Source: Fidelibacterota bacterium (GTDB taxonomy: Bacteria; Fidelibacterota; Marinisomatia; SCGC-AAA003-L08; JACNLC01). From it: 64,000 bases of DNA. The notes beneath the pieces were generated by a model that ran no database searches, had not been told where the DNA came from, and saw only the letters and a program-made list of their open reading frames with translations. Position numbers and translations under genes: made by a program. This document shows, piece by piece, positions 1,408 through 62,399 of the stretch. Location: positions 5,472-69,471 of the forward strand of contig JABHXA010000002.1 of the NCBI GenBank assembly GCA_018657495.1, given 5' to 3'. Numbering within the stretch: position 1 is the stretch's first letter; the number at the start of each line of letters is the position of its first letter.

Positions 1408-1414
1408 CATTTAT

Positions 1415-7167: not shown

Positions 7168-7175
7168 CTGAAGTC

Positions 7176-21900: not shown

Positions 21901-22495
21901 GCATATGTCGTCCAAATTCATCAAGCAATCGGGATCCAAAATCATTAACCTCTGAGCAAAAGGAGAGTGAGCGAATTGTATCAACGATGCTTCTTAACCG
22001 GCTATTGACATGAGACAAATGATTATTTGCCTTTTTTAACTCCTCCTTCTGGTCATCGACTGCATTTTCTAAATATTGCTGATATATTAAATTTTCTTTT
22101 TTCAGACGGGATTTTTCAAGAGCGCTTGTAATGGCATGACTTAATACAGATAAATTTTCAATTGGTTTGAGCAGGTAGTCCCATGCACCCATGTGCAATG
22201 CGTCAACAACGTCACCAATATTTCCTGTACCTGATATAGCAATTAATGGTGTTTCTGGAGACAATTTTGCAATGCTTGATAAAACCTTTAAACCATCTAC
22301 CTCCGGCATTTTAAGATCAACTAATACGAGATCAACTGTATCCTTTTCGAACAACTCAAGACCGATTCTGCCGTTTTCTGCTACCAATGTTTGGTATTCC
22401 ATATCCTCAAGGTAATCGGCAAAACTTTGCAGGATAGCCGCTTCATCATCTATGATTAGTATTCTCGGATTACGATTAGCCTTTAATCTATTCAT
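18926..22495 (-). CDS. Hybrid sensor histidine kinase: REC - GAF - multiple PAS - ENPNP PAS-like module - HisKA - HATPase - REC
   Basis: N-terminal REC (ILIIDDE ... [13 protein letters not shown]). A GAF-like region and several PAS units ending in DITDRK/DITMLK/DITEQR follow. H-box is [15 protein letters not shown], the ATPase G-boxes are DTGIGM and GTGLGLSVV, and the C-terminal REC is LLVVEDD ... [13 protein letters not shown]. Confidence 0.9.
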   Translation of the reverse strand: [1189 protein letters not shown]

Positions 22496-24900
22496 CTATC
22501 GGTTTTGTCAAATGGTAATCTTATTACGAAATTTGCTCCTTTATCCGGATTGGAAATAACAGTCATCTTTCCACCAAAATTTTCTGTAATAATATAAAAT
22601 GATACGCTAAGACCTAGACCAGTTCCAACCCCTGCTGATTTTGTTGTAAAAAAAGGTTCAAAAACTTGTTTGCGAATATCCTCTGTCATACCCGGTCCAT
22701 TGTCTTCAATCTCGATTCGAATGAAATTTTGTTTTGTTTCAGTTTGAATACGTATTTTAAAAATTGGATTTTTCTGTTTCATATCATGCATTGCTTCTGC
22801 TCCATTTCGCAAAATATTTAGCAATACTTGCTGAATCATAGCATCATCACCCACCATTAAAGGTAGATTCTTTTCATATTCTTTAATAATAGTTATAATT
22901 TTAAAATCGAATTGTTTTTTCAAATCGTAGTCGGTTGCAGCAAGTTTGAGAGTACTATTTATGACATTCTCAATGTCAAACGTATTTTTAATATGTTCGC
23001 TTTTTCTGGCAAAGTTTAACATATTGTGGACAATGTCAGCGACACGTTTGCCTAACTGGTGAATAGTTGATAACATTCTCGGCACCTCGCGGTCATCCAT
23101 GTACGAGGCAATTGCTTCCAGCGATACTCCGGAAGAATCGGCAGCTTTTTTATTGGCAGGCAATGATAAATTAATGAGACGATTATTCATGACATCAGCA
23201 GTTTGGAGGATCCCTGCAATGGGATTATTTATCTCGTGGGCCATTCCCGCAGCTAAACCTCCGACCAAGAGCATTTTTTCACTCTGGATCATCATTTCAT
23301 CTAACATCACTCTCTCAGTTACATCGTCAACGCGGATAACTGCCCCTCTCATCCCATTTGCAGTAAGCGGATATATGGTTATGTCTTCATAACGAGTTTC
23401 ATTGTTAACCCGACGCTTTCTCCTTGAATCTGTTTGGACCTTTTGGGTTTGCATTGCCCGGTGCAGTTTTGTTAATTCTTTGGAAAAATGTGGCAGAACT
23501 TTCTTCAGTGGTTTACCGATCGCTTTTTCAACAGTTATTCCCGTTTTCTGATAAGCCTCATGATTCCATTGAGTAATCACACAATCAATATCCACGCCTA
23601 TTAGCACCGAAGGCATTGAATCTATAATGTTTGAAAGGTAGTTACGTAATTGATGCAATTCCTGTTCGGCCAGTTTACGATGGGTAATATCATTATATAA
23701 TCCAAGTACACCATACACGTCACCAGAGGTATTTTTAAGTGGAATTTTTGAGGTCTTCAACCAAATAGTTTTACCTTCAGGTGTCGTCTGAGGTTCCTCA
23801 TAATTTATCTTGGCTTGGTTGCTTTCTATCACTAATTTATCATCTTGGCGGTACATATCAGCCTCATCAAACCAAGCCATATTGTAATCATCATTACCAA
23901 TTATTTCATCAGGGTTTTTTTTTCCTGCATCCTCGGCAAATAATTGATTGCAACCAAGAAATACACTATTTAAATCTTTCCAGAATACTCGCACTGGAAT
24001 GTTATCTAAAACATCACCCAGCATTCGTTTTGATTCAATCAAATCTAATTCAATCTTTTTACGATCGGAAATATCTAGGCAGAATGCCATGAAACGGTTA
24101 TTTGAAAGTGATGAAGCACTTATTGATACATAAATCTCTGTTTTATCTTTTAAGGTAAGAATAGATTCGCCCTTCGACTTTCCTTTATCCTGAAGTCTCT
24201 GAAAAGAATTGAGTGATTTAGAGAGAGATTCAGGTTTGACTAAATCAGAAATGGACATATTTAATAATTCATCTCTAGAATATAATGTCATCTTGCACGC
24301 AGTTTCATTTACATCGATGTATTTTCCATTTGAATCAGCAACAAATATTCCTTCTGGTGCATTCTCGAAATAGGTGCGATTTTTATTTTCACTTTCTAGC
24401 AATGCAGATTCGGCGAGCTTTCGTTTTGTAATATTTCTTACAACTGCCTGTATAAAGGATCCAGATGAAAGTTTAACAAGGTTTAGACTTACTTCAGCGT
24501 CAAATAGTGAACCATTAAGTTGTTTGTGTTTCCATTCAAATATTTGTGGTTTCCCATCCAAAACTGCCGAGATTTTCTCAACAGCTTTTTCATTAGAAGT
24601 TCTGCCATCTGGCTGAAGTAAAGGGGAGAATTTAATGGGCGAATGGCCAATAATTTCATCCCTTTTACATCCGAACATCATTAAGGTTTGAGTATTGCAG
24701 TCAATAAATAAATCACCCTTCATCAAAAAAATGGCGTCGTTTGCAGATTCAAAAAGGGTATGATATTTAATCTCAGATTCTTGCAGTTTTGATTCTACAT
24801 AATCAGTAATTGTGTCTGGAAAATTATATTTTTCAAGTTGTTTTCTCAGTATTTGCAACTCATTTATCAGTTCAGATTTGGTTTTTGAATGATCGTTCAT
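22492..24900 (-). CDS. Cytoplasmic multi-PAS sensor histidine kinase (HEINNP-type H-box)
   Basis: No TM segment. There are four PAS-like units (NITKRK, DISDRK, DITHRK, DDVTERV). H-box is [15 protein letters not shown] and the ATPase motifs are EDNGPGM and GTGLGLSVS. It has ATGA overlaps with both neighbouring kinase genes. Confidence 0.9.
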
Positions 24901-26804
24901 GAATTTTCTCTTAATATTGGAAGTCTTATTGAAAAATTAGCTCCTTTTCCAGGGGAGGAACTGACGGTCAACTCACCACAATGATTTTTAGTAATTATAA
25001 AATATGAGACACTCAAACCGAGACCGGTGCCGACTCCTACAGGTTTTGTTGTAAAAAATGGTTCAAATACCTGTTTGCGTGTTTTTCTGTCCATTCCGGG
25101 ACCATTATCTATTATTTCGATTAAAATAAGATTTTTCTTTTTCTTGATGGACGTCCTGATTATAAATGTTGGATCTTTGATACCGGCATCCTGCATTGCC
25201 TCAGCGCCATTACGAAGTATATTCAATAGTACTTGCTGAATCATGGTTGCTTCACATGGTACAGCTGGCAGGTTCTTTTCATATTCACGGATGAGCTTTA
25301 TGGTCTTAAAATCGTAATGTTTTTTCAAGTCATAATCTGTGGCGGCGAGTTCAATAGTTTTATCCAGTAGTATTTCAATATCAGATTTTGATATATAATC
25401 TCCAGTATTTCGTGCAAAACTGAGCATGTTATTCACAATAGCTGCAACTCTTTTCCCGGAATCATTAATTGTATTCAGCATGCGTGGTACTTCCCTGGCT
25501 TCCATATATTTATTTATTACTGTTAGGGATGTACCAACAGCCTCGGCAGATGCTATATTGGCTTTTATATTGAGATTATCAACTAGACGACTATTCAACA
25601 CTTTCGCAGTCTGCATCAAACCCGCCAGTGGATTATTGATTTCATGGGCCATACCAGCAGCAAGACCACCTACAGAAAGCATTTTCTCACTTTGGATCAT
25701 CATGTCCTCCATATGCACCCTGTCAGTCACATCATCAATCCGGATGACCGCACCCTGGATGTCATTCCCAATAAGGGGATAGATGGTGACATCCTCAAAA
25801 TAGGTAGAATGGTTTACTTTATACTGTTGCTTGTGATTAATCAGAATTTCCCGACTTTCCATCGCTAATTTAATGCGGTTTGTTTCGCTGGCAAGGCGGG
25901 GGATTGCTTCGGACAAGTGTTGACCAATTGCTACTTTCTTTTTGATTCCACTTTTATCAACTGCCTCTTTATTCCATTGCGTGATTACGCAATCTGTATC
26001 AACACCGACTAAAATTGATGGCATTGAGTCAATAATATTGGAAAAATAGTTTTGCAGTTTATGCAGTTCATTCTGTTTGATTTGAATCTGATCAAGCATA
26101 ATGTTGAATCCATCGAATAAGATACCTATTTCGTCGGTACCTTTTTTATGCATTCGAATTGAATAATCTTGATCTTCAGAAATCTTTTTTGTTACTTTAG
26201 CCAGCTTCAGTATGGGCTTGGAAATAGTGAGCTGTAGTAATCTGGCTATAAAATATGCTATGATTAAAAGAACGGCTGTCAAAAGCAACATGAAAAGTAA
26301 GTGTTTGAGAACCTTCTCTTCCAGTTCCTGGGTCGAACCTCTCAAATATAATGTTCCATATTGTTTATTTTCAAAATCAATAGAGTAAAAAGCGTGGATG
26401 AAATCACCCCAGAAACCGACTTGATTTTCATGAATTGGAGGTGGCGCCATAATGTCGTTGTCATATTTATGAAATTCAGCAAAAACAGTACTGTCCTTCT
26501 CATATATAAAAGCATCAAAAATAAATGGATTTGCTTTGAGGTTTTCTAATACCCTGATGGCCTCATCTTGATGTTTAAATTCTAGGCTTGATACACAGTA
26601 CTGACTTATTAAATGAGCATTTATCTGCATATTGCTTTCCAATTCATCTCGAAAGGTTCGAATGTCATAATAGGTAAATAAAGATAAGCCGGTGATAACC
26701 ACAGCTGAACAAGTGAAAACAATAATTAAGATTAATTTGTTCTTTATAGAAATATTATTTAGAAATTGCTTTATATAGAGGAGTGGATGTGGCATCGATT
26801 GCAA
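24897..26804 (-). CDS. Membrane sensor histidine kinase: extracytoplasmic sensor - TM - HAMP - PAS - HisKA - HATPase
   Basis: Two TM segments ([39 protein letters not shown]) flank a ~130-aa loop. A HAMP-like region contains [14 protein letters not shown]. H-box is [15 protein letters not shown] and the ATPase motifs are IDNGPGM and GTGLGLSVS. Confidence 0.9.
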   Translation of the reverse strand: [635 protein letters not shown]

Positions 26805-27003
26805 TAGATTAAATTAAGTAAGTAATTTTGTTGTTTGAGTGGATGGCGGCACATTGACTTGATCTAAGATGAATAATATTACAATCTGTAAATATTTTGT
26901 GTAGGATTCCATTGGTCGTATTTTTTTTTGTTTTGCATTGGTTGCGATCAAACAGGAGATTAGAAAAATGATTTTTTCTTATATTATATCGAATAATTCA
27001 AAA

Positions 27004-27435
27004 TTATTTGTCAACCACATTTTTACTCTTAGAGATTAGTTGGATGATATGGTCGAGATCTTCTTCTAACGCCATCATATCAGTAACTGGCTTACGGAAT
27101 ATTCGATTTGAGACATGACGATCATTGCGAAAATCATCAGGGAGTTGATATTCAGGAGAGCCGGTACATATAGCAAATGCGGTATCAAGATTTTGTCTTA
27201 GAGCTTTTCTTATAAAAGCATCACCATCCATACCCCCCAAACGGATATCGACTATTGCGGCATCAGGCGGATTGGTTTTGAGAATTGACAATGCCATTTC
27301 ACCACTGTTTGCCTGTATTGTCTTCCATTCCAGGTCATCAAAAAAGTCGCTAAAGCTATGCCTGATGGAAATTTCATCATCTAATATAAGAATTGTTTTT
27401 ATTGAATCATTCACGATGTATATCCTCCTGAACAT
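27004..27435 (-). CDS. Stand-alone response regulator receiver (CheY-like)
   Basis: ILILDDE, AAIVDIRLGGMDG (phospho-acceptor Asp) and IFRKPV (conserved Lys). The start is ambiguous among three candidates. The ORF track uses ATG 27468. ATG 27435 is annotated here. GTG 27414 is preceded by AGGAGG at 9-nt spacing. Confidence 0.8.
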   Translation of the reverse strand: MFRRIYIVNDSIKTILILDDEISIRHSFSDFFDDLEWKTIQANSGEMALSILKTNPPDAAIVDIRLGGMDGDAFIRKALRQNLDTAFAICTGSPEYQLPDDFRNDRHVSNRIFRKPVTDMMALEEDLDHIIQLISKSKNVVDK

Positions 27436-27652
27436 TGAGACGATACCATAACTTACATTGAACTGCAAGAGTCAGGATAGCCTCCTAGAACGAAATTAGA
27501 AATGGTTTTGTAATATTGAAACAACAATGGAAATTACCTTCAATGATTTTCAATCCAGGTTGCCACCGTCAGGCTGACCTGAATTAAATGTGATCCTAAA
27601 AAATGTTTAAGAACTTATGATAATAATATCAATAATTATGGATAAATCAATA

Positions 27653-30070
27653 TTATTTATCCAAAACTTTTCGGATTGCTGATGAAATAACCTTCATTTC
27701 AATTGGTTTACTTATAACTTTGTCAATCCCACTCTTTTTTCTAAGATCTTTAGTAATAAAACCACTGTTTCCAGTCATAATTATAATTGGAAAATCTGGA
27801 TTGGATTTTTGTATTTCTCTTGAGAGATCAATGCCAGTCATATTTGGCATAGCCATGTCAGTAATTATCAAATTATATTCATCAGGATGATGCTTAAATG
27901 CTTTCAACGCCTCCGTACTGCTATTATATAAATCTACCTTATACCCTATACTTACAAGCATATGGTAAATCATATTACCAACACTTACATCATCATCAAC
28001 AACTAAAATAGATTCATTCCCTTTGGAAACAATTTCTTTTTCTTCTTTGACAGAAACAGATTCTAAAGTTTCTATCGGCAGGTAAATATGAAAAGCCGAA
28101 CCTTGACCCAAATCACTTAAGACCAGGATATCCCCCTTATGATTCCGAATAATTCCATGGACGACAGAGAGACCAAGTCCAGTACCTTTTGTTACTTCTT
28201 TAGTTGTGAAAAACGGCTCAAAAATATGTTCAACAGTATCGTCATCCATACCTGCACCAGTATCAATAACAGACAGCTTGGCGTAGTTTCCTTTTTCCAG
28301 ACGAGGACATAGTTTTAATGTATCTTCATCTAATAATGTCTGTTCTAATTTAATAGTCAGTCTACCGCCTTTTTCTTCCATTGCCTGCCAGGCATTTGTG
28401 CATAAATTGATTATTACCTGGTGTATTTGGGTTGCATCAGCAAGCACTTTTCCACAATTAGTATCGATTTGACTAATAATTTCAACTGTTGCTGGAATAG
28501 ACGGTCTCAGCAAATTCAGCGCTTCTTTGATTAAGGGTGGTAAAAGGAGGGAAAAATGTTCATTTTCACTTTGTTTGCTAAACAGGAGTATTTGCTCAAC
28601 CAGCTTACTTGCCCTAAAGGCAGCATTCAATACTTGTTCAAGTTTATAATGCATTGGGTCATTTTCTTTCAAATTGATCAATGACATTTCTGTAAATCCC
28701 ATAATGGGGGTGAGAATATTATTGAAATCATGGGCAATGCCGCCTGCTAAGGTGCCGATTGTTTCAAGTTTCTGAGACCGACGAAGCTGTTCTTCAAGTT
28801 TCTGTTTTTCATCTTCTGCTAATTTACGATCGGTGATATCTCTGATAATTTCCTGGAGACGACCATCAGGTAATATCCTGGCGCTGATTTCAACTGGGAC
28901 CTTATTGGAGTCTTTTCGAAGCAGTCTATGTTCTGATACAACAATTTTCCCTTCCAATAATTTTTCCATGCGGAAAAGGGTAGAGGACAAATCCTCAGGT
29001 GGAGTAAGATCTGAGATATTTTTTGTCAGGATCTCACTATGAGAGTATCCTAACATGCTACATCCACTTAGGTTAACAGCGATGTATTTTCCACTATTAT
29101 CAGAAATGAAAATTCCATCAGAAGCCTGTTCCAGTATTGATCGATAATTATTTTCACTGATACGTAAATCACGCTCAGTTTTCTCTTTTGCATCAATTGT
29201 TCTTAACAGGGCTTTCGTTCTTACTCTAACCTGCCACCTCAGTACAATAATTAGTATAGCGATAGTCATCACTATGAACATTAATATGATTAATACCCTG
29301 AGCGGACTTAGCCAACCAGGTATAACCAGTTTATTTACCCCTTCAATCCATTGATTAATTGATTGATAGTAGAATGAATTCTTATTACTTTTTAAAGTAT
29401 TAATGTGTTTATCAATGGTTTTGAGAATTTCATCATTTTTACCAAGTGGGGCTGCCATTCGTAGTTCTACTGGTTTGAAATTTATAAAACTTCTCTGTAC
29501 ATCATATTTACTTTCATGGTACAACCCAAAAATTCTTGGTACTAATCCAGCATCAACCTTGCCCTCAGAAACAAGTTCAAGAACTTCTGAATAATCCTCT
29601 ACTTCTATATATATTGAATTTATATTAAGTTTTTCTTCAAAAGATTTTAATGCAAGAAAATAGATATCTTCCTTTTGTGCTGCTATACGTTTACCGGACA
29701 AATCTATCATGGATTGAATCTCGGAATCCATTGGGAGATAAACTTGTCCCCAATTGGTAACAAGATTTGTTTCATTAAAATTATAAACTTTACCTCTTTC
29801 GACTGTAAATGCTATACCCAACAAAATATCAATTTCATCTGCCTTTAACCGGGCCAGCCCATTGGCCCAGGAACCATGTTTGTATTGGATAACCCAGTTT
29901 TCCTGTTCGGCAATATAATTTATTATATCAATGTATATACCCTTAAAAGAACCATCCTCTTCCATAAAAACAAGGGGTTCATTATCCCAGACACCAACCC
30001 TGAGTGAATCCAGTGAGTACAAAGGTGATAGCGATAATACTATTAAAATAAATAAGATTTTGAAATTCAT
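27653..30070 (-). CDS. Hybrid sensor histidine kinase with periplasmic solute-binding (SBP family 3-like) domain - TM - PAS - HisKA - HATPase - REC
   Basis: A signal peptide is followed by a ~230-aa periplasmic domain ([13 protein letters not shown] ... [10 protein letters not shown] ... VDAGLV), then a TM ([19 protein letters not shown]) and a PAS unit (DITDRK). H-box is [15 protein letters not shown], ATPase motif GTGLGLSVV, and REC is ILVVDDD ... [13 protein letters not shown]. Confidence 0.9.
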   Translation of the reverse strand: [805 protein letters not shown]

Positions 30071-52488: not shown

Positions 52489-54120
52489 TTAATCCTCTTC
52501 CATAAACGGATATTCGTATTCTGTTGGTGGAAGAAATGTCTCTTTAATTGTTCTTTGTGAAACCCAACGTAGAAGGTTCAGGGGGGATCCAGCTTTATCA
52601 TTTGTCCCAGATGCCCGACTGCCGCCAAATGGCTGTTGTCCGACAACAGCACCCGTGGGTTTATCATTTATATAAAAATTACCAGCAGCATTGATCAGGA
52701 TTTTATGTGCTAATTCAATGGCATATCGGTCTTTTGAAAATACTGCTCCCGTTAAACTGTAAGGAGAAGTTTTATCGGCAAGTTCAAGGACATCCTCCCA
52801 GCTTGAATCATAGACATAAATGGTCAGTACTGGACCAAATATTTCTTCTTCCATAGTTTTGAAGTGGGGATTAGTTGTGACAATTGTTGTCGGCTCGATA
52901 AAGTATCCTTTAGACTTGTCAAAATTTCCGCCGGAGACTATTTCTGCTTCATCTGAAGATTTAGCGTAGTTGATAAATTCTACAATGCTGTCAAAAGCAG
53001 CCTCATCTATAACGGCATTCATAAAATTGGGGAAATGATCCACATCACCCATCTTTATAGATTCCACCTTTGCCACATATGATTGTTTTACGTCATTCCA
53101 GATAGACTTTGGAATATAACATCGTGATGCAGCAGAACATTTCTGACCTTGGTATTCGAATGCACCTCTTACCATAGCAGTTGCCAATTCTTCAGGATTT
53201 GCAGACTCATGGGCAATAATAAAATCTTTTCCACCAGTTTCACCAACGATCCTCGGGTAAGTTTTATATTTGGAAATATTGCTGCCAATTTTCCCCCACA
53301 TGCCTTGGAATACGGCTGTAGAACCTGTAAAGTGTATACCGGCGAGATGCTCGCTATCTAGAACTGGATTTCCCACCTGACCACCTGAACCTGGGAGGAA
53401 ATTGATCACACCATCTGGTAATCCCGCTTCTTTGAACATCTGCATTAAATAATAACCGGAATAAACTGAGGATGAGGCAGGTTTCCAGAGAACAACATTT
53501 CCCATCAATGCCGGGGCGGTTGGAAGGTTACCTGCGATCGAGGTAAAATTAAATGGTGTTACTGCAAATACAAATCCCTCAAGAGGACGGTATTGTACCA
53601 TATTCCACATTCCTTTTGGAGAATATGGTGGCTGTTGCTGATAGATTTCCTGCATATACTGGCAATTGAAATTGAAGAAATCAATAAGTTCACAAGCAGC
53701 ATCAATTTCAGCCTGGTAAACATTCTTACTTTGGTTTAGCATGGTTGCAGCATTTAGAATATCACGATATGGTCCGGCAAGCAATTCAGCCATTCGCTTG
53801 AATATGGCAACTCTGGATTGCCATGGCATTTCTGCCCATGATTTTGCAGCAGATAGGGCAGAATCAATAGCCATCTGCACTTCTTTTTCACCGGCTTTAT
53901 GATAAGATCCAAGGATGTGTCGATGATCCGATGGTTTGACACATTTGCCAAGATTGCCGGTTCTGATTTCTTTCCCACCTATAATAATGGGGATATCAAT
54001 ATTATTGCCTGACATTTCATTCAATTTTGCCTGGAGAGAAAAACGTTCTGGAGAGCCGGATCTGTATTCTCTGATTGCTTCATTTACAGCAGTTGGTACA
54101 TTTACAATTGTATTGTTCAT
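52489..54120 (-). CDS. pruA: L-glutamate gamma-semialdehyde (1-pyrroline-5-carboxylate) dehydrogenase
   Basis: 543-aa aldehyde dehydrogenase with catalytic VGETGGKDF (Glu) and FEYQGQKCSAASR (Cys). Its length and termini are typical of stand-alone PruA. Confidence 0.85.
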   Translation of the reverse strand: MNNTIVNVPTAVNEAIREYRSGSPERFSLQAKLNEMSGNNIDIPIIIGGKEIRTGNLGKCVKPSDHRHILGSYHKAGEKEVQMAIDSALSAAKSWAEMPWQSRVAIFKRMAELLAGPYRDILNAATMLNQSKNVYQAEIDAACELIDFFNFNCQYMQEIYQQQPPYSPKGMWNMVQYRPLEGFVFAVTPFNFTSIAGNLPTAPALMGNVVLWKPASSSVYSGYYLMQMFKEAGLPDGVINFLPGSGGQVGNPVLDSEHLAGIHFTGSTAVFQGMWGKIGSNISKYKTYPRIVGETGGKDFIIAHESANPEELATAMVRGAFEYQGQKCSAASRCYIPKSIWNDVKQSYVAKVESIKMGDVDHFPNFMNAVIDEAAFDSIVEFINYAKSSDEAEIVSGGNFDKSKGYFIEPTTIVTTNPHFKTMEEEIFGPVLTIYVYDSSWEDVLELADKTSPYSLTGAVFSKDRYAIELAHKILINAAGNFYINDKPTGAVVGQQPFGGSRASGTNDKAGSPLNLLRWVSQRTIKETFLPPTEYEYPFMEED

Positions 54121-54560
54121 ATAAATTCCTGATCAATATTTATTACGAATTTGGTCCTAAAAAAGTCGTCAAATTTATTGTGCTTCGTCATTGCGTACCA
54201 AGCAGTATAGCAAAACCAAATATTAAATTTTTCCAAATTCAAAAATAAGAGTTCCACCCGGTCTTTATTGTTAAATCTATTGGTTCAGTCGGATGCTTTA
54301 ATAACTGGCAAAAGTAGGGCTAATCTGTTTAAAATTGTTAGTTCGATAAGCTGAGCTAATTTTATTAACTGCAGATTTAGTAGTCTTCTCAATGTACACC
54401 CGGTAAGTCAACTGACATAGCAAAATATCATAACTCTATATCATTAATTGTTCATATATTTGAACCATCCCACGATTCTAAAATAATGAAGATTTAATTG
54501 AATTGGATCAATTAATAAAAGAATTGACCTATGTTAAAAGTATCAAATGAAGGATTAATT

Positions 54561-56291
54561 ATGAATACTATATATTCAAAAATAGTTACTTTTATCTTTA
54601 TAATAACCATCCCTGCGTTACATACCCAGAGTAATCCCGGTGATAATGATCAGAACAATAATCCCCGTGATTGTATTGAAGACAATTTTAATGATTGCTG
54701 TGAACATCCATTTGAGGTCTGGTTGGATAATGATGATGATGGATTAGGTGATCCGGATAACCCGGCGTTGGCCTGTAGCGATTATTTTGGATGGGTGGAA
54801 AATAATAGCGATCCTGATGATAACTGTTACTCAAATATCATCGATTGTCTTGATATTTGTGATGGAACAGCTTATTATGATGATTGTGAATTCTGTGACG
54901 ATGATACTTCAAACGATGACCTATCCTGCACAGGCTGCCTGGATGAGGATGCCATTAATTATGAACCTGACGCCTTATTTGATTCCGGAAATTGTATCTA
55001 CCCGAGCGATAATATTTGGCATGTCTCAGTTTCAGGATCTGATGAAACAGGTATTGGTACGATTGATAATCCATTTGAGAGTATTACACATACCATTGAG
55101 GCAGCAGTTAGCAGTGACACCATACTGGTGCAACCTGGAATATATTATGAGAATATCAATTACTCAGGAAAGAATCTGGTTATTTGTTCATTGCATTATT
55201 TTACCGGTGATACAAATTTTATCCCGATTACGATAATTAATGGAAATCAAAACGGTAGTGTAGTCACTTTTGAGAATGGAGAGGATTCGACAACTGTGCT
55301 GGCAGGGTTTACAATAATAAATGGTATTGGTTCTGGAATAACTGATATTTCTATGATAGGTGGTGGTATCACAATAAAAAACAACTCAAGCCCCCAATTA
55401 AAGTATCTTGATATAAAAAATAACGCATCCGTCAAGGGTGGGGGGGTGCTAATATTAGAATCTAATCCAATACTTCAAAATCTTACAATACATGGGAATA
55501 ATGTACTAGGGGATATCTCTAATAATTTTGGTGGAGGGATATTTTGTAAGATTAGCAGCCCAGCAATTTCGAACACTAAAATATTTAATAATGAGACCAC
55601 TAGATCAGGTGGTGGAATTGCGTTTAGGCTTTCAAATGCTAGCTTGAGTCGATCCATATTATACAACAATGTAGCTCATCATAAAGCAGGTGCAATAGAT
55701 TTTTCTTCAAGCATGGTAATGGTAAATAATGTAACAATATTTGGTAATCATGCCGACCATGGAGGTGGGGCATTTCAATCATATTATTCTGATTCTCATC
55801 CAATAATTATTAATTCTATTATTTGGGGAAATACACCCAATCAGATTTTAGTTGGTTCTCAAGGTCAAGTTGATTTGCATCACTCGGTTATAGATGATAG
55901 CTGGTATGATGGGATTGGGAATTCGTACGACGATCCAATGCTTAATGATGCATCAAATTGTGACTTTTCTCTTGCTGCATCATCTTTATGTATTGACAAT
56001 GGCACAAATACTTTTGAGAATGATCTAATATCCTTTTTTATGAGCAATGAGGAATATATTGGATATCAACCGGATATGGGTGCCATCGAATCAAATTATT
56101 CAATAAATCATGTTGGAGATATAAATGGAGACTATTTAACTGATATTTTGGACTTAATCGCTTTAGTTAATATCATTATTTACAGTCTGGAACTGTCAGA
56201 ATTAGAATTTTGGATAGCTGATTTAAATGAAGATTCAATTATAAATATACTCGATGTCTTTATGCTGATTGAAAATATATTGTGTACTTAA
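54561..56291 (+). CDS. Secreted MopE-type Cys/Asp repeat - right-handed beta-helix (Pmp-like) - dockerin protein, paralogue 1
   Basis: Start moved to the ATG preceded by TGAAGGA (MNTIYSKIVTFIFIITIPALHTQ signal). It has one CC-PFEVW-DNDDDGLGDP-AC-GWV-DNC unit. GGG(I/V)-containing coils include IGGGITI, KGGGVLI, FGGGIFC and SGGGIAF. GYQPDMGAIES precedes a C-terminal dual D-x-N-x-D segment. Confidence 0.65.
   Translation: MNTIYSKIVTFIFIITIPALHTQSNPGDNDQNNNPRDCIEDNFNDCCEHPFEVWLDNDDDGLGDPDNPALACSDYFGWVENNSDPDDNCYSNIIDCLDICDGTAYYDDCEFCDDDTSNDDLSCTGCLDEDAINYEPDALFDSGNCIYPSDNIWHVSVSGSDETGIGTIDNPFESITHTIEAAVSSDTILVQPGIYYENINYSGKNLVICSLHYFTGDTNFIPITIINGNQNGSVVTFENGEDSTTVLAGFTIINGIGSGITDISMIGGGITIKNNSSPQLKYLDIKNNASVKGGGVLILESNPILQNLTIHGNNVLGDISNNFGGGIFCKISSPAISNTKIFNNETTRSGGGIAFRLSNASLSRSILYNNVAHHKAGAIDFSSSMVMVNNVTIFGNHADHGGGAFQSYYSDSHPIIINSIIWGNTPNQILVGSQGQVDLHHSVIDDSWYDGIGNSYDDPMLNDASNCDFSLAASSLCIDNGTNTFENDLISFFMSNEEYIGYQPDMGAIESNYSINHVGDINGDYLTDILDLIALVNIIIYSLELSELEFWIADLNEDSIINILDVFMLIENILCT
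56115..56288 (+). other. Dockerin-like C-terminal module of paralogue 1 (partly degenerate)
   Basis: GDINGDYLTDILDLIALVNII ... ADLNEDSIINILDVFMLIENI. These are two EF-hand-like D-x-N-x-D loops, each followed by a hydrophobic helix. Confidence 0.6.
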
Positions 56292-56576
56292 ATTTCCAAT
56301 TTGTGCTCTTAAAATTATTTATAATTGGATAATTAATTGGGATATTGAGAATTTTTTATAATTAAACTATAATTGGAACCTATTTTAGGATTTCCATTAT
56401 TGAGAAAATTTGAAATAAAATTAATTCAACTTATAATATTCTCAAATAGAAAATCTAAAACACTAATATTTAAAATTAATAAAAGAATATATGGTTACAT
56501 CATATATTATAAATAGTCAAACCGATCTAATTTTAACAAATAAGTGAATCTAATATAATTATTTGAAGGACACAAT

Positions 56577-58499
56577 ATGAACAATATATACTTAAGATTA
56601 TCCTCCATAATCATTCTCATCCCACTTATATCTGCTCAAAATATTATTGAAATAGAGAACTTTAAAAATAATCTCAATGGCTGCATAGAAGACAGCTTTG
56701 GTGATTGCTGTGATGTCCCATTTGAAGTATGGTATGACAATGATAATGATGGCTTAGGTGACCCGAATTTTCCCGCATTGGCATGTCTGGATTATGTTGG
56801 GTGGGTGACAAATGATAGTGATCTGAACGATAATTGTTTTTCCAACGAATTGGATTGTGCTGATAATTGTGATGGCACGTGGGTTGAGGATCAATTCGGA
56901 ATGTGTTGCTCAGAGCTGCAAACATTCTGGCAGGATTTGGATGGCGATGGTCTTGGTAATCCAAATATTAGCATGGAGGCATGTGATGAACCGGAAGGTT
57001 GGTCGTCATTTCCAGTAGACTTAATGGACAATTGTTTTTCCAACATAAAGGATTGTCTCGGTATATGCGATGGAACTGCGTATTACGATGCCTGTGGTAT
57101 CTGTGATGATAATTCTGAAAACGATAATACAAGCTGTGTGGGCTGTATGGATGAGGCGGCAATAAATTTTGATCCAGATGCATTAATTGATTCAGGAAAC
57201 TGTATTTATCCCAGCGATCATATATGGCATGTTTCAGTTTTAGGGTCGGATGAATTTGGTTTTGGGACTGTTGAGGATCCATATTTTACAATTCAACATA
57301 CAATTGACTCTGCAAGTAATTTGGATACAATACTTGTTCATAGTGGTATTTTTTATGAGAATATTAATTTAAATGGAAAAAATTTACTAATATGTTCACT
57401 TTATGCTTTTACATTAGAGGAACATTTTATTTATGAGACTATAATCGACGGTGGTTATAATGATACTGTGATATTAATTGAAAATGGCGAAAGTGATTTA
57501 ACTTACATAATTGGTTTCACAATTCAACATGGTGCTGGCTCAGGAATATCCAATTCTAGTGTAAAGGGTGGAGGAATAACCATTAAAAATCATTCTAATC
57601 CAAATATTAGTCATTTGGATATTAAAGAGAACACATCTATAAAAGGTGGGGGAATAGTAATACTAGAATCTAATCCTTCGTTAGAAAACCTTTCGATATA
57701 TGAAAATATGCTATTTGGAGATATTTCAAATAATTTTGGTGGTGGACTATTCTGTAAGCTAAGCGATCCTATAATATCACATGTTAGCATATTTAATAAT
57801 GAAACGGATAGAACGGGTGGTGGTATATATTTTAGATTATCCAATGCCAATTTAAGTCACTCATTAATATACAATAATGTTGCTCATCATCGTGCCGGAG
57901 GAATAGATTTTTCCTCAAGTACCGTTACTGTTAACAAAGTTACAATGAGTGGTAACCATGCAGATAATGGTGGTGGTGGCTTTCAGACATATTATTCAGA
58001 ATCTCATCCGATAATTTTAAATTCTGTTATTTGGGGAAACACACCAAATCAACTAATAGCTGGTAGTGGAGGTCAATTTGATTTACATTATTCTGCAATA
58101 GAAGATAGTTGGAATCAAGGGGTTGGTAATATTTACGAAGATCCATTATTTGTTAATTCATACGGAGGAGATTTTTCACTGACTGAATCATCTCCTTGTA
58201 TTGATTCTGGAACTAATTATTTTGAGAGTGAATTAATCTATTTTAATATGAATTCAGAAGATTATTATGGTTACCAGCCAGATATGGGTGCATTCGAATC
58301 TGAATATTCGAATTACTTGGTTGGAGATGTCAACTATGATAACGACGTTAACATATTAGATATAATAATAATTGTAGGATTTATTTTAAATGAAATTGAT
58401 CTGACCGACATAGAAATGTGGTTGAGTGATTTAAATCAAGATGGAGAAATAAATATTCTTGATATTATTATTATGATAAACATTATCACTGGAAATTAA
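56577..58499 (+). CDS. Secreted MopE-type Cys/Asp repeat - right-handed beta-helix (Pmp-like) - dockerin protein, paralogue 2
   Basis: The ATG is preceded by TGAAGGA and the signal is LSSIIILIPLISAQN. It has two MopE-like units (FEVWYDNDNDGLGDP and TFWQDLDGDGLGNP). Its beta-helix is colinear with paralogue 1. GYQPDMGAFES precedes the dockerin GDVNYDNDVNILD ... DLNQDGEINILD. Confidence 0.7.
   Translation: MNNIYLRLSSIIILIPLISAQNIIEIENFKNNLNGCIEDSFGDCCDVPFEVWYDNDNDGLGDPNFPALACLDYVGWVTNDSDLNDNCFSNELDCADNCDGTWVEDQFGMCCSELQTFWQDLDGDGLGNPNISMEACDEPEGWSSFPVDLMDNCFSNIKDCLGICDGTAYYDACGICDDNSENDNTSCVGCMDEAAINFDPDALIDSGNCIYPSDHIWHVSVLGSDEFGFGTVEDPYFTIQHTIDSASNLDTILVHSGIFYENINLNGKNLLICSLYAFTLEEHFIYETIIDGGYNDTVILIENGESDLTYIIGFTIQHGAGSGISNSSVKGGGITIKNHSNPNISHLDIKENTSIKGGGIVILESNPSLENLSIYENMLFGDISNNFGGGLFCKLSDPIISHVSIFNNETDRTGGGIYFRLSNANLSHSLIYNNVAHHRAGGIDFSSSTVTVNKVTMSGNHADNGGGGFQTYYSESHPIILNSVIWGNTPNQLIAGSGGQFDLHYSAIEDSWNQGVGNIYEDPLFVNSYGGDFSLTESSPCIDSGTNYFESELIYFNMNSEDYYGYQPDMGAFESEYSNYLVGDVNYDNDVNILDIIIIVGFILNEIDLTDIEMWLSDLNQDGEINILDIIIMINIITGN
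56682..57239 (+). repeat. 558-nt paralogous block A (Cys/Asp-rich N-terminal module of paralogue 2), colinear with 59697-60254
   Basis: Both blocks are 186 codons from the first Cys of CIEDSFGDCC to HIWHVSV and align without indels. By eye most nucleotide positions are identical, for example the shared string gaggatcaattcggaatgtgttgctc. Confidence 0.8.
58323..58496 (+). other. Dockerin (type I-like) C-terminal module of paralogue 2
   Basis: GDVNYDNDVNILDIIIIVGFIL ... SDLNQDGEINILDIIIMINII. This is a duplicated D-x-N-x-D-x-x-(V/I)N-(I/V)LD calcium-loop plus helix. Confidence 0.7.
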
Positions 58500-58684
58500 C
58501 CATTTTTATTAATTATTTATAAAAAATATCATCTCTAAATGATTAGGGTGAAAATATATGTTTTCTCTGATGGATTTTTTGTTTATTATCTTCATTTCAT
58601 TTAATATAAAATGATTTAAGATTAAATAAAGAATACTAATATTCACTAGAATTTTAATTTAAATTTTAATCATATGGGAGAGAA

Positions 58685-59410
58685 GTGAGAAAGATAGCGT
58701 TAGGTAAACCTGCAGAATATGAAGATTTCATTATTTCGCGTCGAATAAGCATTTTAAAATCGTTTGATGATTTTATAAATATTAAGTACAGTCTAATAGA
58801 TATAGGATGCGGTAATGGGGGAAGTCTAATTATACTTTCTGATTTGTTTAGAAAATGTCATGGGATAGATATTATTGAATCTAATCTTAAACAATTATCC
58901 GAAAAAATTTCTGAATATAAAATTCTAAATTGTACATCTAATTTAGAAGATATCGACGCTATGGAGGAGTCAGCAGATAAATATGACAGAATTGTATCAT
59001 TTGAAGTTGTTGAACATGTGAAAAATGATTTTCAAACGGTCAGGAATATGTATACCAAGTTAAATGTTGGGGGTAAAATTGCAATATCAGTACCAAATAA
59101 ATGGTGGATATTCGAAACACATGGAGCATATTTACCAATATTGCCTTGGAATAGGGTTCCATTATTTTCCTGGCTACCGAAGTTTATTCATTCAAGATAT
59201 GCAAAAGCTAGAATTTATCGTAAAAAAGATATTAATAAAATTGTTGAACATGCTGGATTTAAAAATATAAAAATTCAATATATTACAGCACCAATGGATG
59301 TGATAAAGTGGAAACCATTACAGTCATTCTTACGGAAGACAATTTTTAGCAAGAATACAACAAAAATTCCATTTTTATCTACATCGATTATAGTATACGC
59401 AGAAAAATGA
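58685..59410 (+). CDS. Class I SAM-dependent methyltransferase
   Basis: Motif I is LIDIGCGNGGS. An acidic loop (GIDIIE) and post-II SFEVVEHV follow. It uses a GTG start preceded by GGGAGAG. Confidence 0.75.
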   Translation: MRKIALGKPAEYEDFIISRRISILKSFDDFINIKYSLIDIGCGNGGSLIILSDLFRKCHGIDIIESNLKQLSEKISEYKILNCTSNLEDIDAMEESADKYDRIVSFEVVEHVKNDFQTVRNMYTKLNVGGKIAISVPNKWWIFETHGAYLPILPWNRVPLFSWLPKFIHSRYAKARIYRKKDINKIVEHAGFKNIKIQYITAPMDVIKWKPLQSFLRKTIFSKNTTKIPFLSTSIIVYAEK

Positions 59411-59588
59411 TATACAATTAATCACTCTTCAACAATAGTGTGCAAAAAAAGTCAGTTAAACGTTTTATTAATTGAATTCGAGTTCAGAGTAGATATCAAT
59501 TCGGGTTAACCGATCTTTGTTAATAAAAAAGCTAATTTACTTTACTAATCATCATATAGTATTGAAAATTTTATTTAGAGGGTGTATT

Positions 59589-61631
59589 ATGAATAAATTA
59601 TATTTGAAAATATTCTTTTGCTTTCTGATTATTATCCTTCTCCCTGCACAGACTATCCCAGATATTAGTAATAATAATTCACACATCCGCTTTGGGTGCA
59701 TTGAAGACAGTTTTGGAGACTGTTGTGAAGCACCATTTGAAGTTTGGTTTGACAATGACAATGATGGATTAGGTGATCCTGATTTTCCCGCTTTAGCTTG
59801 TATGGATTATGCCGGATGGGTAACTAACAATAGTGATCTAAATGATAATTGCTTTTCTAATGAAATTGATTGTGCGGATAATTGTGATGGAAGTTGGATT
59901 GAGGATCAATTCGGAATGTGTTGCTCTGAGTTACAAACATTTTGGCAGGATTTGGATGGAGATGGCCTTGGTAATCCAAATATCAGTATGGAAGCATGCG
60001 AAGAACCAGAAGGATGGTCATCATATCCAGTAGACCTTATGGATAATTGTTTCTCCAATATAAAAGATTGTCTCAGGACTTGTGATGGAACTGCTTATTA
60101 TGATGCCTGTGGTGTCTGTGATGATATTTCTCAAAATGACAGTACAAGTTGTGTGGGTTGTATGGATGAGGAGGCAATTAATTATGATCCGGATGCTTTA
60201 GTTGATTCAGAAAATTGTATATATCCAAGTGATCATATTTGGCATGTTTCGGTTTCTGGTTCGGATGATACTGGTACGGGTACAGTTGAAAATCCGTTTG
60301 AAACCATCAATCATACAATAGGTGTAGCCGTTACTACTGATACGATTCTTGTCCACACTGGTACCTACTATGAGAATATCAATTATTCTGGGAAAAATAT
60401 TTTAATCTGTTCTATGTTTTATTTTACCGATGATACGAGCTTTATATCGCTCACGAGCATTGATGGCGGGCAAAATGGTAGCGTAGTTACAATTGAAAAT
60501 GGGGAGGATAATAATGCAATATTAAGTGGGTTCACATTGACAAATGGATATGGGAATTTTCGAGATCCGGATGGAAATGGGGTATCCAGACATTTAGGGG
60601 GAGGTATATATTGTGATGGGACAGAACCAATGTTGGAATACTTAATAGTCAATGGAAACTTTGCTGAAGGAGGAGGTGGAATTTATTTAGGAAATGATTC
60701 GAGTCTGATTTTGTTAAACTCTTCAATAATAAATAATACTGTCACAGGATATGGAGGAGGAATAAGATGTGAAAACTCTAATAGCACGTTCTCAGACTTA
60801 ATTATAAAAAATAATAGTGCCGATTCAAAGGGAGGTGGAGTATATATCGTTTACTCAAATCCATTTATGATCAATTCAAAGATTATAGATAATTCAATTA
60901 ATTCTTGGCATGCTGGAGGTCTTTATATTGGTCATGGGTCAGATCCTATTTTGCAAAATTTATTGATTTCTGGGAATTCTGGTGAATATGGTGGTGGTGT
61001 ATCATGTGATACAAACACAAATCCAGTATTTATCAATACCACTATAACTGCTAATGTTTCGGTATACGGTGGAGGAATTCTATGCATATTAAATTCCAAT
61101 CCAATTTTCATTAATTCAATATTATGGGATAATAGCCCACAAGAAATTTATTTATGGGATAGCACAAATTCAATAGCTTTAGCATACTCAGATATCCAGG
61201 GTGGTGAATATTCAATTGTTAACTATCTTGACAATGAAGTTAACTGGATGGAAGGAAATATTGATAGCGATCCATTCTTTCTTGATATTAACAACGAAAG
61301 TTTTTCATTGTCTGAGAATTCTCCATGCATTGATACTGGAACGGATTATTTTGAGTATCAGCAAGAAATATTATTAAATCTTCTTCCAGAAGAATATGAA
61401 GGTTATAATCCTGATATGGGATCCATAGAATCAGAATTTATTGGTTTAGAAGGAGATGTTAATCATGATGAGGATCTTAATGTATTGGACATAATCCTAA
61501 TAGTCAATTTTATACTTGAATTAGACAACTTAACTGATTATGAACAATGGATTGGCGATTTAAACGACGATGGTGAAATCAATATATTGGATATAATTAT
61601 ATTAATCAGTCTTATCTTGCAAGGAGGCTAA
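59589..61631 (+). CDS. Secreted MopE-type Cys/Asp repeat - right-handed beta-helix (Pmp-like) - dockerin protein, paralogue 3
   Basis: Start moved to the ATG preceded by AGAGGG (MNKLYLKIFFCFLIIILLPAQT signal). The N-terminal 186 codons are colinear with paralogue 2. The beta-helix is longer and divergent (LGGGIYC, GGGGIYL, YGGGIRC, KGGGVYI, HAGGLYI, YGGGVSC, YGGGILC). The dockerin is GDVNHDEDLNVLD ... DLNDDGEINILD. Confidence 0.7.
   Translation: MNKLYLKIFFCFLIIILLPAQTIPDISNNNSHIRFGCIEDSFGDCCEAPFEVWFDNDNDGLGDPDFPALACMDYAGWVTNNSDLNDNCFSNEIDCADNCDGSWIEDQFGMCCSELQTFWQDLDGDGLGNPNISMEACEEPEGWSSYPVDLMDNCFSNIKDCLRTCDGTAYYDACGVCDDISQNDSTSCVGCMDEEAINYDPDALVDSENCIYPSDHIWHVSVSGSDDTGTGTVENPFETINHTIGVAVTTDTILVHTGTYYENINYSGKNILICSMFYFTDDTSFISLTSIDGGQNGSVVTIENGEDNNAILSGFTLTNGYGNFRDPDGNGVSRHLGGGIYCDGTEPMLEYLIVNGNFAEGGGGIYLGNDSSLILLNSSIINNTVTGYGGGIRCENSNSTFSDLIIKNNSADSKGGGVYIVYSNPFMINSKIIDNSINSWHAGGLYIGHGSDPILQNLLISGNSGEYGGGVSCDTNTNPVFINTTITANVSVYGGGILCILNSNPIFINSILWDNSPQEIYLWDSTNSIALAYSDIQGGEYSIVNYLDNEVNWMEGNIDSDPFFLDINNESFSLSENSPCIDTGTDYFEYQQEILLNLLPEEYEGYNPDMGSIESEFIGLEGDVNHDEDLNVLDIILIVNFILELDNLTDYEQWIGDLNDDGEINILDIIILISLILQGG
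59697..60254 (+). repeat. 558-nt paralogous block B (Cys/Asp-rich N-terminal module of paralogue 3), colinear with 56682-57239
   Basis: See block A. The protein segments differ only at scattered positions (TWVEDQFGMCCSELQTFWQDLDGDGLGNPNISMEACDEPEGW versus SWIEDQFGMCCSELQTFWQDLDGDGLGNPNISMEACEEPEGW). Confidence 0.8.
61452..61628 (+). other. Dockerin (type I-like) C-terminal module of paralogue 3
   Basis: GDVNHDEDLNVLDIILIVNFIL ... GDLNDDGEINILDIIILISLIL. Confidence 0.7.
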
Positions 61632-62399
61632 GTAGACAGTCCCTAATACAAATATCTCATTTAATAAAGGAATATTTCCGATAGGAGATATTCTTGTTCT
61701 CCATCCCAAACGTATTTCGTGGGACGGTCTAAATGTGAAGAATTTTTTTTGATTGATCTTGAATGACAAACTTTTCATCAGTTTTATAAAATTCATATTT
61801 GTCATCTTACATTTTTTAATTTCAATAATATTATTTAACGCTTCTTCAGATTCGTGTAAGAGATGAAGAATAGGTAACAAAAAGATATTTGGGATCATTC
61901 CCAAAAAGGGTAATTTTTTTAAAAAGGATTTCAAAAATGTCTGTTGATGAAGTCCAAATGGTGAATAAAAAGGTGGAAATGTAATTAGAAAAACAGTGTC
62001 AGGATTTGCAAAAGATTTTAAAGAGGATAAGAAGTCAAATTTATGGTCCAGTAAAATATGTTCAATAACATCACGTAGAATGATAATATCATAATCACTA
62101 CCAAGATTATTTACCGCATTCTCACTGAGAATATCCTGAACTTTATAAGTTACATTATTCGATTCTTTCCAGTTGAAATCTCTGATTTCAACTCCTACAC
62201 AATCTGCTCCCGAATCGCCAAAAGCAGCAGTAAAACCACCATTTCCACAACCAATATCTAGCACTTTTTTACCTTTTACTTGTACATTCCAATTTTTTAA
62301 CAGTGGGATGTAATATTCTTGTGCTAAAAGGAATTGATATTTCCAATAGTATTCCTGCCATGTAGGAAAATCTTTCACATAAATGTGTGTTAGGCTCAT
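61602..62399 (-). CDS. Class I SAM-dependent methyltransferase
   Basis: Motif I VLDIGCGNGGFT, GVEI, and LRDVIEHI. Its ATG overlaps the stop of the upstream MscS gene by 1 nt (TAATG). Its 3' end overlaps the convergent paralogue-3 gene by 30 nt. Confidence 0.75.
   Translation of the reverse strand: MSLTHIYVKDFPTWQEYYWKYQFLLAQEYYIPLLKNWNVQVKGKKVLDIGCGNGGFTAAFGDSGADCVGVEIRDFNWKESNNVTYKVQDILSENAVNNLGSDYDIIILRDVIEHILLDHKFDFLSSLKSFANPDTVFLITFPPFYSPFGLHQQTFLKSFLKKLPFLGMIPNIFLLPILHLLHESEEALNNIIEIKKCKMTNMNFIKLMKSLSFKINQKKFFTFRPSHEIRLGWRTRISPIGNIPLLNEIFVLGTVYLASLQDKTD

Follow-up and report, generated by a model that had tools for sequence, protein, structure and literature searches.

Introduction

Pairs of cohesin and dockerin modules are already established outside the cellulosome, for example in structures from Clostridium perfringens. 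Few uncultured bacteria of the dark and low-oxygen ocean are as abundant as Marinimicrobia (SAR406), whose interaction with particles and polymers is poorly known. In 'Candidatus Stygibacter' (Cloacimonadota), a cellulosome-like system has been inferred from metagenome-assembled genomes (MAGs), consisting of a cohesin scaffoldin anchored by the C-terminal sorting domain (CTD) of the secretion system of type IX (T9SS) and of signal-peptide proteins of the GH18, C25 and S8 kinds with C-terminal dockerins (Williams et al., 2021; PMC8542988). Our literature search found no paper joining Marinimicrobia or SAR406 with dockerins. Here we describe three genes, A, B and C, in a 64-kb stretch of DNA from contig JABHXA010000002.1 of assembly GCA_018657495.1; this stretch is the window, and all coordinates without a contig label refer to it. 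We give a probability of about one half to the reading in which A, B and C leave the cytoplasm as modular, Ca2+-dependent proteins with a beta-helix, and in which their dockerin docks to a single cohesin anchored through T9SS, with the helix displayed on the cell surface.

Three genes with a common module order

In the open reading frame (ORF) list, gene A (54561..56291, +) encodes 576 aa, or 586 aa from an alternative ATG at 54531, gene B (56577..58499, +) encodes 640 aa, and gene C (59589..61631, +) encodes 680 aa, with the mechanical ORF start at a TTG at position 59517. Each protein begins with a putative signal peptide, followed by one (A) or two (B and C) Cys/Asp units, a Cys-rich segment, a beta-helix and a dockerin. 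The three can be aligned end to end (A-B 61%, A-C 52% identity); the N-termini are hydrophobic and signal-peptide-like, with a maximum 12-aa hydropathy of 2.5-3.2 at residue 7, and the first 215 residues contain 13-19 Cys and 23-26% Asp plus Asn. An earlier note, made from the DNA letters alone, had called them three same-strand genes of an exported paralogous family; the plus-strand ORFs, the hydrophobic N-termini and the 52-61% identity agree with this, and we regard A, B and C as old paralogues. The strictly tandem arrangement of that note has to be given up, as the gene of a 241-aa S-adenosylmethionine (SAM) methyltransferase (58685..59410, +) sits between B and C.

Protein A is identical to P0003 and to NCBI MBT3250906.1 ('hypothetical protein HN729_00255', Candidatus Marinimicrobia), protein B to P0001, and protein C to P0005 and to NCBI MBT3250909.1 ('DUF1565 domain-containing protein', Candidatus Marinimicrobia). 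P0005 was found in 161 blocks of the sequence collection, and the cluster around A contains the 586-aa form, on 105 contigs. Locus L104 (GCA_018645785.1) holds a 2.7-kb stretch 100% identical to window positions 54061-56791, and contigs from the same population show the gene arrangement of the window again. ORFs of 576-680 aa in DNA of 30-35% GC, together with identical proteins on record in many assemblies, exclude chance ORFs. All close homologues of the three proteins (46-60% identity) come from Marinimicrobia MAGs, and the distant ones from Zixibacteria, Cloacimonetes, Ignavibacteria and Planctomycetes. The promoter and terminator scan of the A-C cluster gave counts near the shuffled expectation and was uninformative.

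Type I dockerins at the anchor position

The C-terminal type I dockerin proposed in the earlier note was borne out in the three proteins, each of which scores above the Pfam cutoff for Dockerin_1 (PF00404, 22.9 bits). In A the module spans 56109..56288 (+; residues 517-576; 23.5 bits) and consists of two Ca-loop/helix segments (GDINGDYLTDILD, ADLNEDSIINILD); in B it lies at 58317..58496 (+; residues 581-640; 33.3 bits, and 37.5 bits for the isolated module), and in C at 61449..61622 (+; residues 621-678; 28.2 bits). The Ca loops GDVNYDNDVNILD and SDLNQDGEINILD are visible in the dockerin sequence. A hidden Markov model (HMM) of the family dockerin matches A at 2.2e-25, phmmer matches B to the dockerin of Clostridium thermocellum Xyn10B (2ccl_B) at 2.7e-4, and the AlphaFold model of C shows three helices in the module (residues 632-644, 650-656 and 666-677).

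Family-tuned HMMs were used for a tally of the 120 homologues of the helix that were listed, in which 13 end in a dockerin, 50 have a T9SS CTD and two have both. In P0008 and P0103, the dockerin is followed by a spacer of about 115 aa and then by the CTD. The dockerin occupies the position where the helix homologues otherwise carry a sorting or anchoring domain, and therefore stands in the place of an interchangeable anchor; a weak match resembling choice-of-anchor Q just upstream is consistent with this placement. The T9SS tail Por_Secre_tail (PF18962) was found neither in A, B and C with Pfam nor anywhere in the window with the family-tuned CTD HMM. A hidden cohesin in the spacers between dockerin and CTD was also considered and discarded, as a cohesin-only HMM finds nothing at E<=0.01 in P0008 or in the L012_up and L011 proteins.

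Dockerin proteins in related genomes carry varied cargo, namely TSP3 repeats, thioredoxin-like domains, leucine-rich repeats with LDL-receptor class A modules, and C25 peptidase. The loci of these dockerin proteins are L011:5027-5632, 5999-7294 and 7331-8842, L012:3879-5390, L007:12134-16084 and L098/L099:15501-16756, and several of these proteins have a T9SS CTD after the dockerin as well. This suggests a sizeable dockerin repertoire in these lineages of the Fibrobacteres-Chlorobi-Bacteroidetes (FCB) group.

A single cohesin with a sorting domain in related Marinimicrobia

Related Marinimicrobia encode a protein family, about 240 aa in length, in which one cohesin is joined to a T9SS CTD, and once the gene stands in the same cluster as an orthologue of A, B and C. 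In L009 the gene order is sprA, ham1, the helix-dockerin orthologue P0012, the methyltransferase and a gene for a 239-aa cohesin-CTD protein, which reaches 24.2 bits with Cohesin PF00963 (cutoff 24.1; profile positions 19-130 of 139) and 48.6 bits with Por_Secre_tail. Marine metagenomes are rich in this family, and a precomputed PF00963 hit is attached to many of its proteins. The family profile matches the NagJ and NanJ cohesins of C. perfringens at about 1e-4. The AlphaFold model of the member P0141 (predicted local distance difference test, pLDDT, 77.7) retrieves almost exclusively cohesins in Foldseek, among them 2w1n at 3e-11, 2jh2 with a TM-score (TMt) of 0.78 and a root-mean-square deviation of 3.0, 6kgf with TMt 0.76, and 2xdh, which confirms the cohesin fold.

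Two conserved genomic slots hold the gene in Marinimicrobia. In the first the order is sprA, ham1, a variable segment, the cohesin-CTD gene and a tricorn-like peptidase (L009, L105-L111), and in the second aroA, the cohesin-CTD gene, trkA and trkH (L098-L103, L115-L117). The loci include L009:12819-13535 (+), L017:2738-3454, L105:8001-8726, L099:8001-8756, L115:8001-8741 and L092:8001-8774. One MAG, GCA_964527215.1, holds both a cohesin-CTD gene (L099), with a C25 peptidase of weak dockerin match nearby, and, in L016, a dockerin protein with the methyltransferase after it. Comparison of assemblies and accessions, nucleotide overlap and GC gave no link between a cohesin-CTD gene and the genome of the window.

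A proposed minimal display system

From these elements we propose that A, B and C would be exported via Sec, signal peptide first. The one or two disulfide-rich DxDxDG units, most likely Ca2+-binding, would be followed by the small Cys-rich module and by the DUF1565/PMP-type right-handed beta-helix (PMP, polymorphic membrane protein), the fast-diverging and presumably ligand-binding part. The type I dockerin would plug into a single-cohesin protein fixed to the outer surface through its T9SS CTD, such that the cell would present the helices as interchangeable modules for adhesion or glycan binding. The whole would amount to a minimal, non-cellulosomal cohesin-dockerin display system, in which A, B and C are probably non-enzymatic surface proteins.

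Several points weigh against this proposal. No cohesin was found in the 64-kb window by Pfam on the nine largest other ORFs, by tblastn or by the family HMM at E<=10 on six-frame ORFs, and no T9SS-CTD protein or further dockerin was found in it; the syntenic slot of the closer relatives L004 and L005 also contains no cohesin. A, B and C are without a T9SS CTD, which leaves the crossing of the outer membrane of a diderm unexplained. Dockerin-like modules are often more numerous than cohesins, or are present where cohesins are absent. In addition, the proteins that stand nearest to the helix in structure are enzymes (PL9, GH136, GH120, CE8), a point taken up with the helix below.

The missing window cohesin, the empty slot of L004 and L005 and the lack of an evident surface route are also what would be expected if the dockerin-like module were an orphan, as non-cellulosomal dockerins frequently are, and if A, B and C were periplasmic, released or vesicle-borne Ca2+-binding proteins in which an EF-hand-like pair stabilises the fold or self-associates. 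We consider this unlikely, given that the cohesin fold with its surface-anchoring CTD is conserved across several Marinimicrobia lineages and abundant in marine metagenomes, that the cohesin-CTD gene of L009 is clustered with an orthologue, that dockerin proteins are numerous in these genomes, and that in this family the dockerin takes the place of the CTD at the exact anchor position. The tethering by dockerin-cohesin pairing that the earlier note had put forward is thus left without a partner gene in the window, but it gains from the cohesin-CTD proteins of related Marinimicrobia, encoded in L009 two genes downstream of the orthologue; by analogy with these, cohesin tethering is plausible for the present genome.

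The beta-helix body

The body of each protein is a right-handed beta-helix. In A it extends from 55011 to 56096 (+; residues 151-512, up to GYQPDMGAIES) with GGG motifs spaced by 26, 31 and 26 residues, in B from 57219 to 58304 (+; residues 215-576, up to GYQPDMGAFES), and in C from 60234 to 61436 (+; residues 216-616), with a DUF1565-type N-cap and GYNPDMGSIES at the end. The helices of A and B are 63% identical. The coil periodicity of GGG motifs described in the earlier note corresponds to a spacing of 24-31 residues, that is, one coil of a beta-helix, and its conserved cap motif occurs once per protein in the form GY[QN]PDMGxxES. Its assignment to a right-handed helix is likewise upheld, with Pmp-type scores near the threshold: in C, Pfam returns PF13229 at 5.5e-14 and DUF1565 at 3.7e-5; Chlam_PMP (PF02415; cutoff 20.6 bits) is exceeded by B (21.4) and C (25.2) and approached from below by A (19.7); and TIGR01376 matches C only, at 18 bits against a cutoff of 15. 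For choice-of-anchor Q (NF041518), only B gives a match, at 15.2 bits and below the cutoff of 25 (residues 528-575), although its position and the DMGAxE motif resemble that family. No autotransporter beta-barrel appears in the Pfam scan of the three proteins, which end in the dockerin.

The AlphaFold model of C has a mean pLDDT of 81.5, with values above 90 and regular three-strand coils over residues 220-600. Foldseek against the PDB returned 38 matches at E<=1e-3, and those listed are beta-helix proteins. Pel9A, a pectate lyase, comes first (1ru4; E 8.7e-8, TMt 0.62), and after it stand GH136, PL9 rhamnogalacturonan lyase, GH120 XylC, CE8 pectin methylesterases, AlgE epimerases, phage tailspikes and Rhombotarget A, with identities of 10-16%. 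The family profile run against PDB sequences gave Rhombotarget A as its best match (2.5e-7), then dockerins and matches to the N-cap only; no lyase or hydrolase body was retrieved at E<=0.1. For Rhombotarget A itself, a literature search yielded no functional study.

The neighbourhood of Pel9A and further beta-helix enzymes raises the question of whether A, B and C are dockerin-bearing carbohydrate-active enzymes, PL9-like lyases or beta-helix glycosidases or esterases degrading marine polysaccharides, for which the cassette would serve as a Ca-stabilised linker or binding module. Such enzymes are the classical carriers of dockerins, related MAGs do encode dockerin-tagged chitinase-like and C25 peptidase proteins, and PF22842 (Pel9A-like_beta_helix) is precomputed for A. 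Yet this last assignment is not reproduced by hmmscan at E<=1, the identity to the matched enzymes is as low as quoted above, the profile search of PDB sequences retrieves no enzyme body, and the GGGI/N-x-x-N repeat is of the PMP/choice-of-anchor-Q type, which is not known as catalytic. Across 16 homologues, the conserved residues of the central coils are solely Gly, Asn, Ile and Pro; conserved polar residues occur only in the N-terminal cap (GDTIxV) and in the C-terminal SPCID...DMGxxE end, and no Asp, Glu, Lys, Arg or His is conserved in the central coils by this test of conservation only. Judged by conservation in the same way, neither the Ca2+-binding Asp cluster nor the Lys/Arg base that PL9 catalysis needs is found. 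With Gly, Asn, Ile and Pro alone kept in the central coils, the helix is more likely to be structural or adhesive than to hold a conserved catalytic centre; an adhesin or scaffold appears likelier than an enzyme, and the degradation of polysaccharides by A, B and C themselves seems to us improbable.

The N-terminal Cys/Asp cassette

The N-terminal cassette is built from units detected with the regular expression W-x-D-x-D-x-DG-x-G-x-P...C...GW. A has a single unit (54672..54866, +; residues 38-102; match WLDNDDDGLGDPDNPALACSDYFGW at residue 54), followed by the Cys-rich segment CDGTAYYD...C-x-GC...AINY-x-PDA...NCIYPSD, located by motif search (54858..55010, +; residues 100-150). This single unit aligns in its N-terminal part with unit 1, and in its C-terminal part with unit 2, of B and C. 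In B the two units lie at 56682..57074 (+; residues 36-100 and 101-166; matches at residues 52 and 118) and the segment CDGTAYYD...AINF-x-PDA...NCIYPSD, found by the same search, at 57066..57218 (+; residues 164-214). In C the whole cassette spans 59697..60233 (+; units at residues 37-101 and 102-167, Cys-rich segment at 165-215), and its AlphaFold model has a pLDDT of 65-80 for the units, falling below 50 at residues 155-187. The one or two units per protein claimed in the earlier note are indeed there, one in A and two each in B and C, although the second unit of B and C departs from the consensus it had quoted (CCSELQTFWQDLDGDGLGNP...). Similarly, CDGTAYYD and AIN[YF]xPDA occur once in each protein, but A reads CEFCDD where the quoted segment has CGxCDD.

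The cassette, rather than the helix, is the constrained part of A, B and C. Between B and C, amino acid identity is 84-92% in the cassette (86-92% in the units), 62% in the dockerin and 45% in the beta-helix, and the cassette of P0004, from another species, is 87% identical. At identical residues, third-codon identity is 55-69% in cassette and helix and 38% in the dockerin. The divergence at third codon positions marks the duplicates as old. With the cassette at 84-92% and the helix at 45% identity while third codon positions have diverged in both, the pattern indicates that the cassette is under purifying selection and the helix diverging; recent gene conversion behind the high B-C cassette identity was considered and is ruled out by a third-codon identity of only 57-69%.

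The earlier note had called the unit MopE-type. As a direct label this was dropped: Cu-binding_MopE (PF11617) does not match full-length A, B and C at E<=1, nor the isolated cassette and unit at E<=10, and the isolated N-terminal modules of B, Cys-rich segment included, match no Pfam or NCBIfam family at E<=10. The PF11617 model from the same library does detect P0113 (320 bits, 8 copies). What stands in place of the label is homology by pairwise comparison and phmmer, for BLASTP aligns the B cassette with P0113 (E 1e-14, 37% identity) such that entire repeat units, each about 66 residues long, stay in register; the DGDGxG...C...G(Y/W)V half is preserved in full, and DNCFSNELDCADNCDG faces the core of PF11617, where gaps of 5 and 2 residues are needed. 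In an exhaustive phmmer search with the 179-aa cassette, E<=1e-3 was reached by 2,761 representative clusters and <=1e-10 by 657, mostly giant proteins (P0262-P0409, 1,000-4,000 aa) with up to 34 matched stretches. Both cassette modules, the DGDG unit and the C-x-GC...NY module, recur in tandem in these giants, with the Cys-rich part at about query residues 120-178; the Cys-rich module of B is also present in P0103 and P0115. Ten carriers were sampled, four of them multi-copy PF11617 proteins and others with a T9SS tail, LTD or IPTL-CTERM, and in all ten Pfam gave over the cassette modules either no family or PF11617. The unit is, therefore, a shortened member of a very large superfamily of Cys/Asp repeats that includes the MopE-type motif. 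As a building block, the cassette is very common among giant surface proteins of marine origin, is covered by no model and would merit a family definition.

The DxDxDG loop is a Ca2+ motif. Its invariance in the unit suggests Ca2+ rather than a MopE-like copper site, and nothing in the cassette analysis points to copper. That A, B and C acquire copper or another transition metal through a site in these repeats is very improbable, for although the units are homologous to repeats of PF11617 proteins and no other part of A, B and C is as conserved as the cassette, PF11617 itself is undetected, the aligned core lacks 5 + 2 residues including the PGAxE stretch, the conserved feature is the Ca2+-type loop, the copper site of MopE uses His residues and an oxidised Trp outside this motif, and no copper-related genes lie nearby in the window.

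Methyltransferases and other neighbours

The gene between B and C encodes a class I SAM methyltransferase (Methyltransf_23, Pfam 4.7e-17) that is highly conserved, with the motifs WWIFETH and YITAPMDV. In L004, L009 and L011, the gene directly downstream of a helix-dockerin gene is an orthologue of 60-68% identity, and loci of the family are L004:11935-12657, L009:11931-12656, L011:12677-13402, L016:6001-6714 and L017:1865-2575. In the slot between the aldehyde dehydrogenase and MscS genes, L004 has one paralogue plus the methyltransferase and L005 two paralogues with no methyltransferase; the pair of a helix protein followed by the 241-aa methyltransferase is found again in the unrelated contexts of L009, beside sprA, and L011. 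A scan of species-representative genomes gave 347 methyltransferase loci, mostly in Bacteroidota, where the neighbours are unrelated (GT2, CDF, NUDIX and S8, for example). Among the best 80 of the 347, a helix homologue stands upstream only in L013 and L014; L016 has a ChitinaseA_N-dockerin gene 16 nt upstream, and L012 and L015 have other dockerin proteins nearby. In Marinimicrobia-like genomes, the 241-aa methyltransferase adjoins dockerin-protein genes, the cohesin-CTD gene or both. On the count of two in the best 80 loci and the unrelated neighbours in Bacteroidota, the idea of a methyltransferase dedicated to the helix proteins was scaled down to a lineage-restricted synteny. The recurrence of the paralogue-methyltransferase arrangement in related genomes, raised in the earlier note, is thus confirmed as an adjacency, while elsewhere the methyltransferase family is widespread with unrelated neighbours.

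A second SAM methyltransferase of 265 aa (61602..62399, -; Methyltransf_23, 1e-13) is convergent with C and overlaps its 3' end by 30 nt. It is 23% identical to the 241-aa methyltransferase and missing from the syntenic position in L004 and L005, and it probably lies outside the system.

A bolder version of the display proposal can be imagined, in which Marinimicrobia use a T9SS-anchored single-cohesin socket, conserved beside the T9SS translocon gene sprA, for capturing dockerin-tagged beta-helix adhesins, chitinase-like proteins and C25 peptidases, the CTD-less A, B and C docking in the periplasm and riding through T9SS, with the methyltransferase as part of the module. We regard this as speculative and doubtful in its full extent.

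Elsewhere in the window, four large sensor kinases of 1189, 802, 635 and 805 aa are clustered at 18926-30070 (-). Most are rich in PAS domains. Receiver domains mark two as hybrid kinases, CHASE8 plus HAMP occur in one, and a periplasmic SBP_bac_3 domain in one. At 157-6175 (+), three consecutive ORFs may form a further surface or sensor module: the second (1031 aa) has a signal-peptide-like N-terminus and the Ig-like domain Big_7, the third (554 aa) has Reg_prop and Y_Y_Y motifs, and no cohesin, dockerin or CTD was seen in any of the three.

Comparison with known systems

Every module of A, B and C is widespread, and the proteins have already been deposited under generic names; they are an uncharacterised but unsurprising family of modular surface proteins. 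The earlier note had suggested an undescribed system and an unknown combination of parts. This is not supported, as the pairing of beta-helix and dockerin recurs in other proteins, the thousands of clusters counted above contain the N-terminal modules, and a system of T9SS-anchored cohesin and dockerin enzymes had already been inferred in Cloacimonadota (PMC8542988). Probably, A, B and C add one more ordinary and uncharacterised case to a kind of surface-display system that is already known. The leads of greater interest lie outside the window, in the T9SS protein with its single cohesin beside sprA, the Cys/Asp cassette that no model covers and the lineage-specific methyltransferase synteny.

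The cassette shares with PF11617 proteins a 65-aa unit that runs in register with whole repeat units, having both the DGDGxG...C...G(Y/W)V half and the Cys-rich half. It differs in the core, where DCDDxxxxxPGAxExCDGxDNDCDG is shortened to DNCxSNxxDCxxxCDG and the model is blind to the unit. The helix resembles the chlamydial Pmp, PMP-repeat and choice-of-anchor Q proteins in the GGxI ... N-x-x-N coil repeats, with scores for Chlam_PMP and TIGR01376 around the threshold, and it closes, as in choice-of-anchor Q, Pmp and Rhombotarget A, with a DxGAxE-type motif just before the anchor. Unlike Pmps, A, B and C have a dockerin as anchor in place of an autotransporter barrel; unlike Rhombotarget A of Acinetobacter baumannii (PDB 9cdu), they have no GlyGly-CTERM; and the choice-of-anchor Q model scores below its cutoff. 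With Pel9A (PL9, 1ru4), the best structural neighbour, they share the right-handed parallel beta-helix fold, but at 14% identity, with no match at the sequence level and with no conserved catalytic or Ca-binding residues in the coils.

The dockerin itself is like the clostridial type I dockerins (C. thermocellum Xyn10B, 2ccl/1ohz): about 58 aa long and C-terminal, it contains two DxNxDxxxxxxD calcium loops with a helix after each. The setting is different from that of clostridial cellulosomes: the host is a Gram-negative marine bacterium of the FCB group and not a Firmicute, the cargo is a PMP/DUF1565-type beta-helix without a recognisable catalytic centre, and relatives offer as candidate partner one cohesin joined to a T9SS tail, with no scaffoldin known.

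Closer at hand is 'Ca. Stygibacter' (PMC8542988), also of the FCB group, and Marinimicrobia relatives too have ChitinaseA_N- and C25-dockerin proteins. Its scaffoldin of 3,755 aa, with tandem cohesins and carbohydrate-binding modules, contrasts with the one cohesin of the Marinimicrobia protein, and the cargo of the window is a beta-helix of non-enzymatic appearance; both systems are known in silico only. If the display reading is true, a Gram-negative marine phylum would have a simple plug-and-socket decoration of its surface, parallel to the system of Cloacimonadota, and the beta-helices would be candidates for adhesion to particles or glycans.

The pairs of C. perfringens (NagJ/NagH and NanJ; 2ozn, 2jh2, 2w1n, 2vo8) offer the best matches of the Marinimicrobia cohesin-CTD protein in both sequence and structure, and they share with the arrangement proposed here a cohesin-dockerin pairing outside cellulose degradation. 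There, the pairs join secreted glycosidase toxins to each other, whereas in Marinimicrobia the cohesin stands alone, in a protein of about 240 aa that carries a T9SS sorting domain, implying anchoring at the cell surface.

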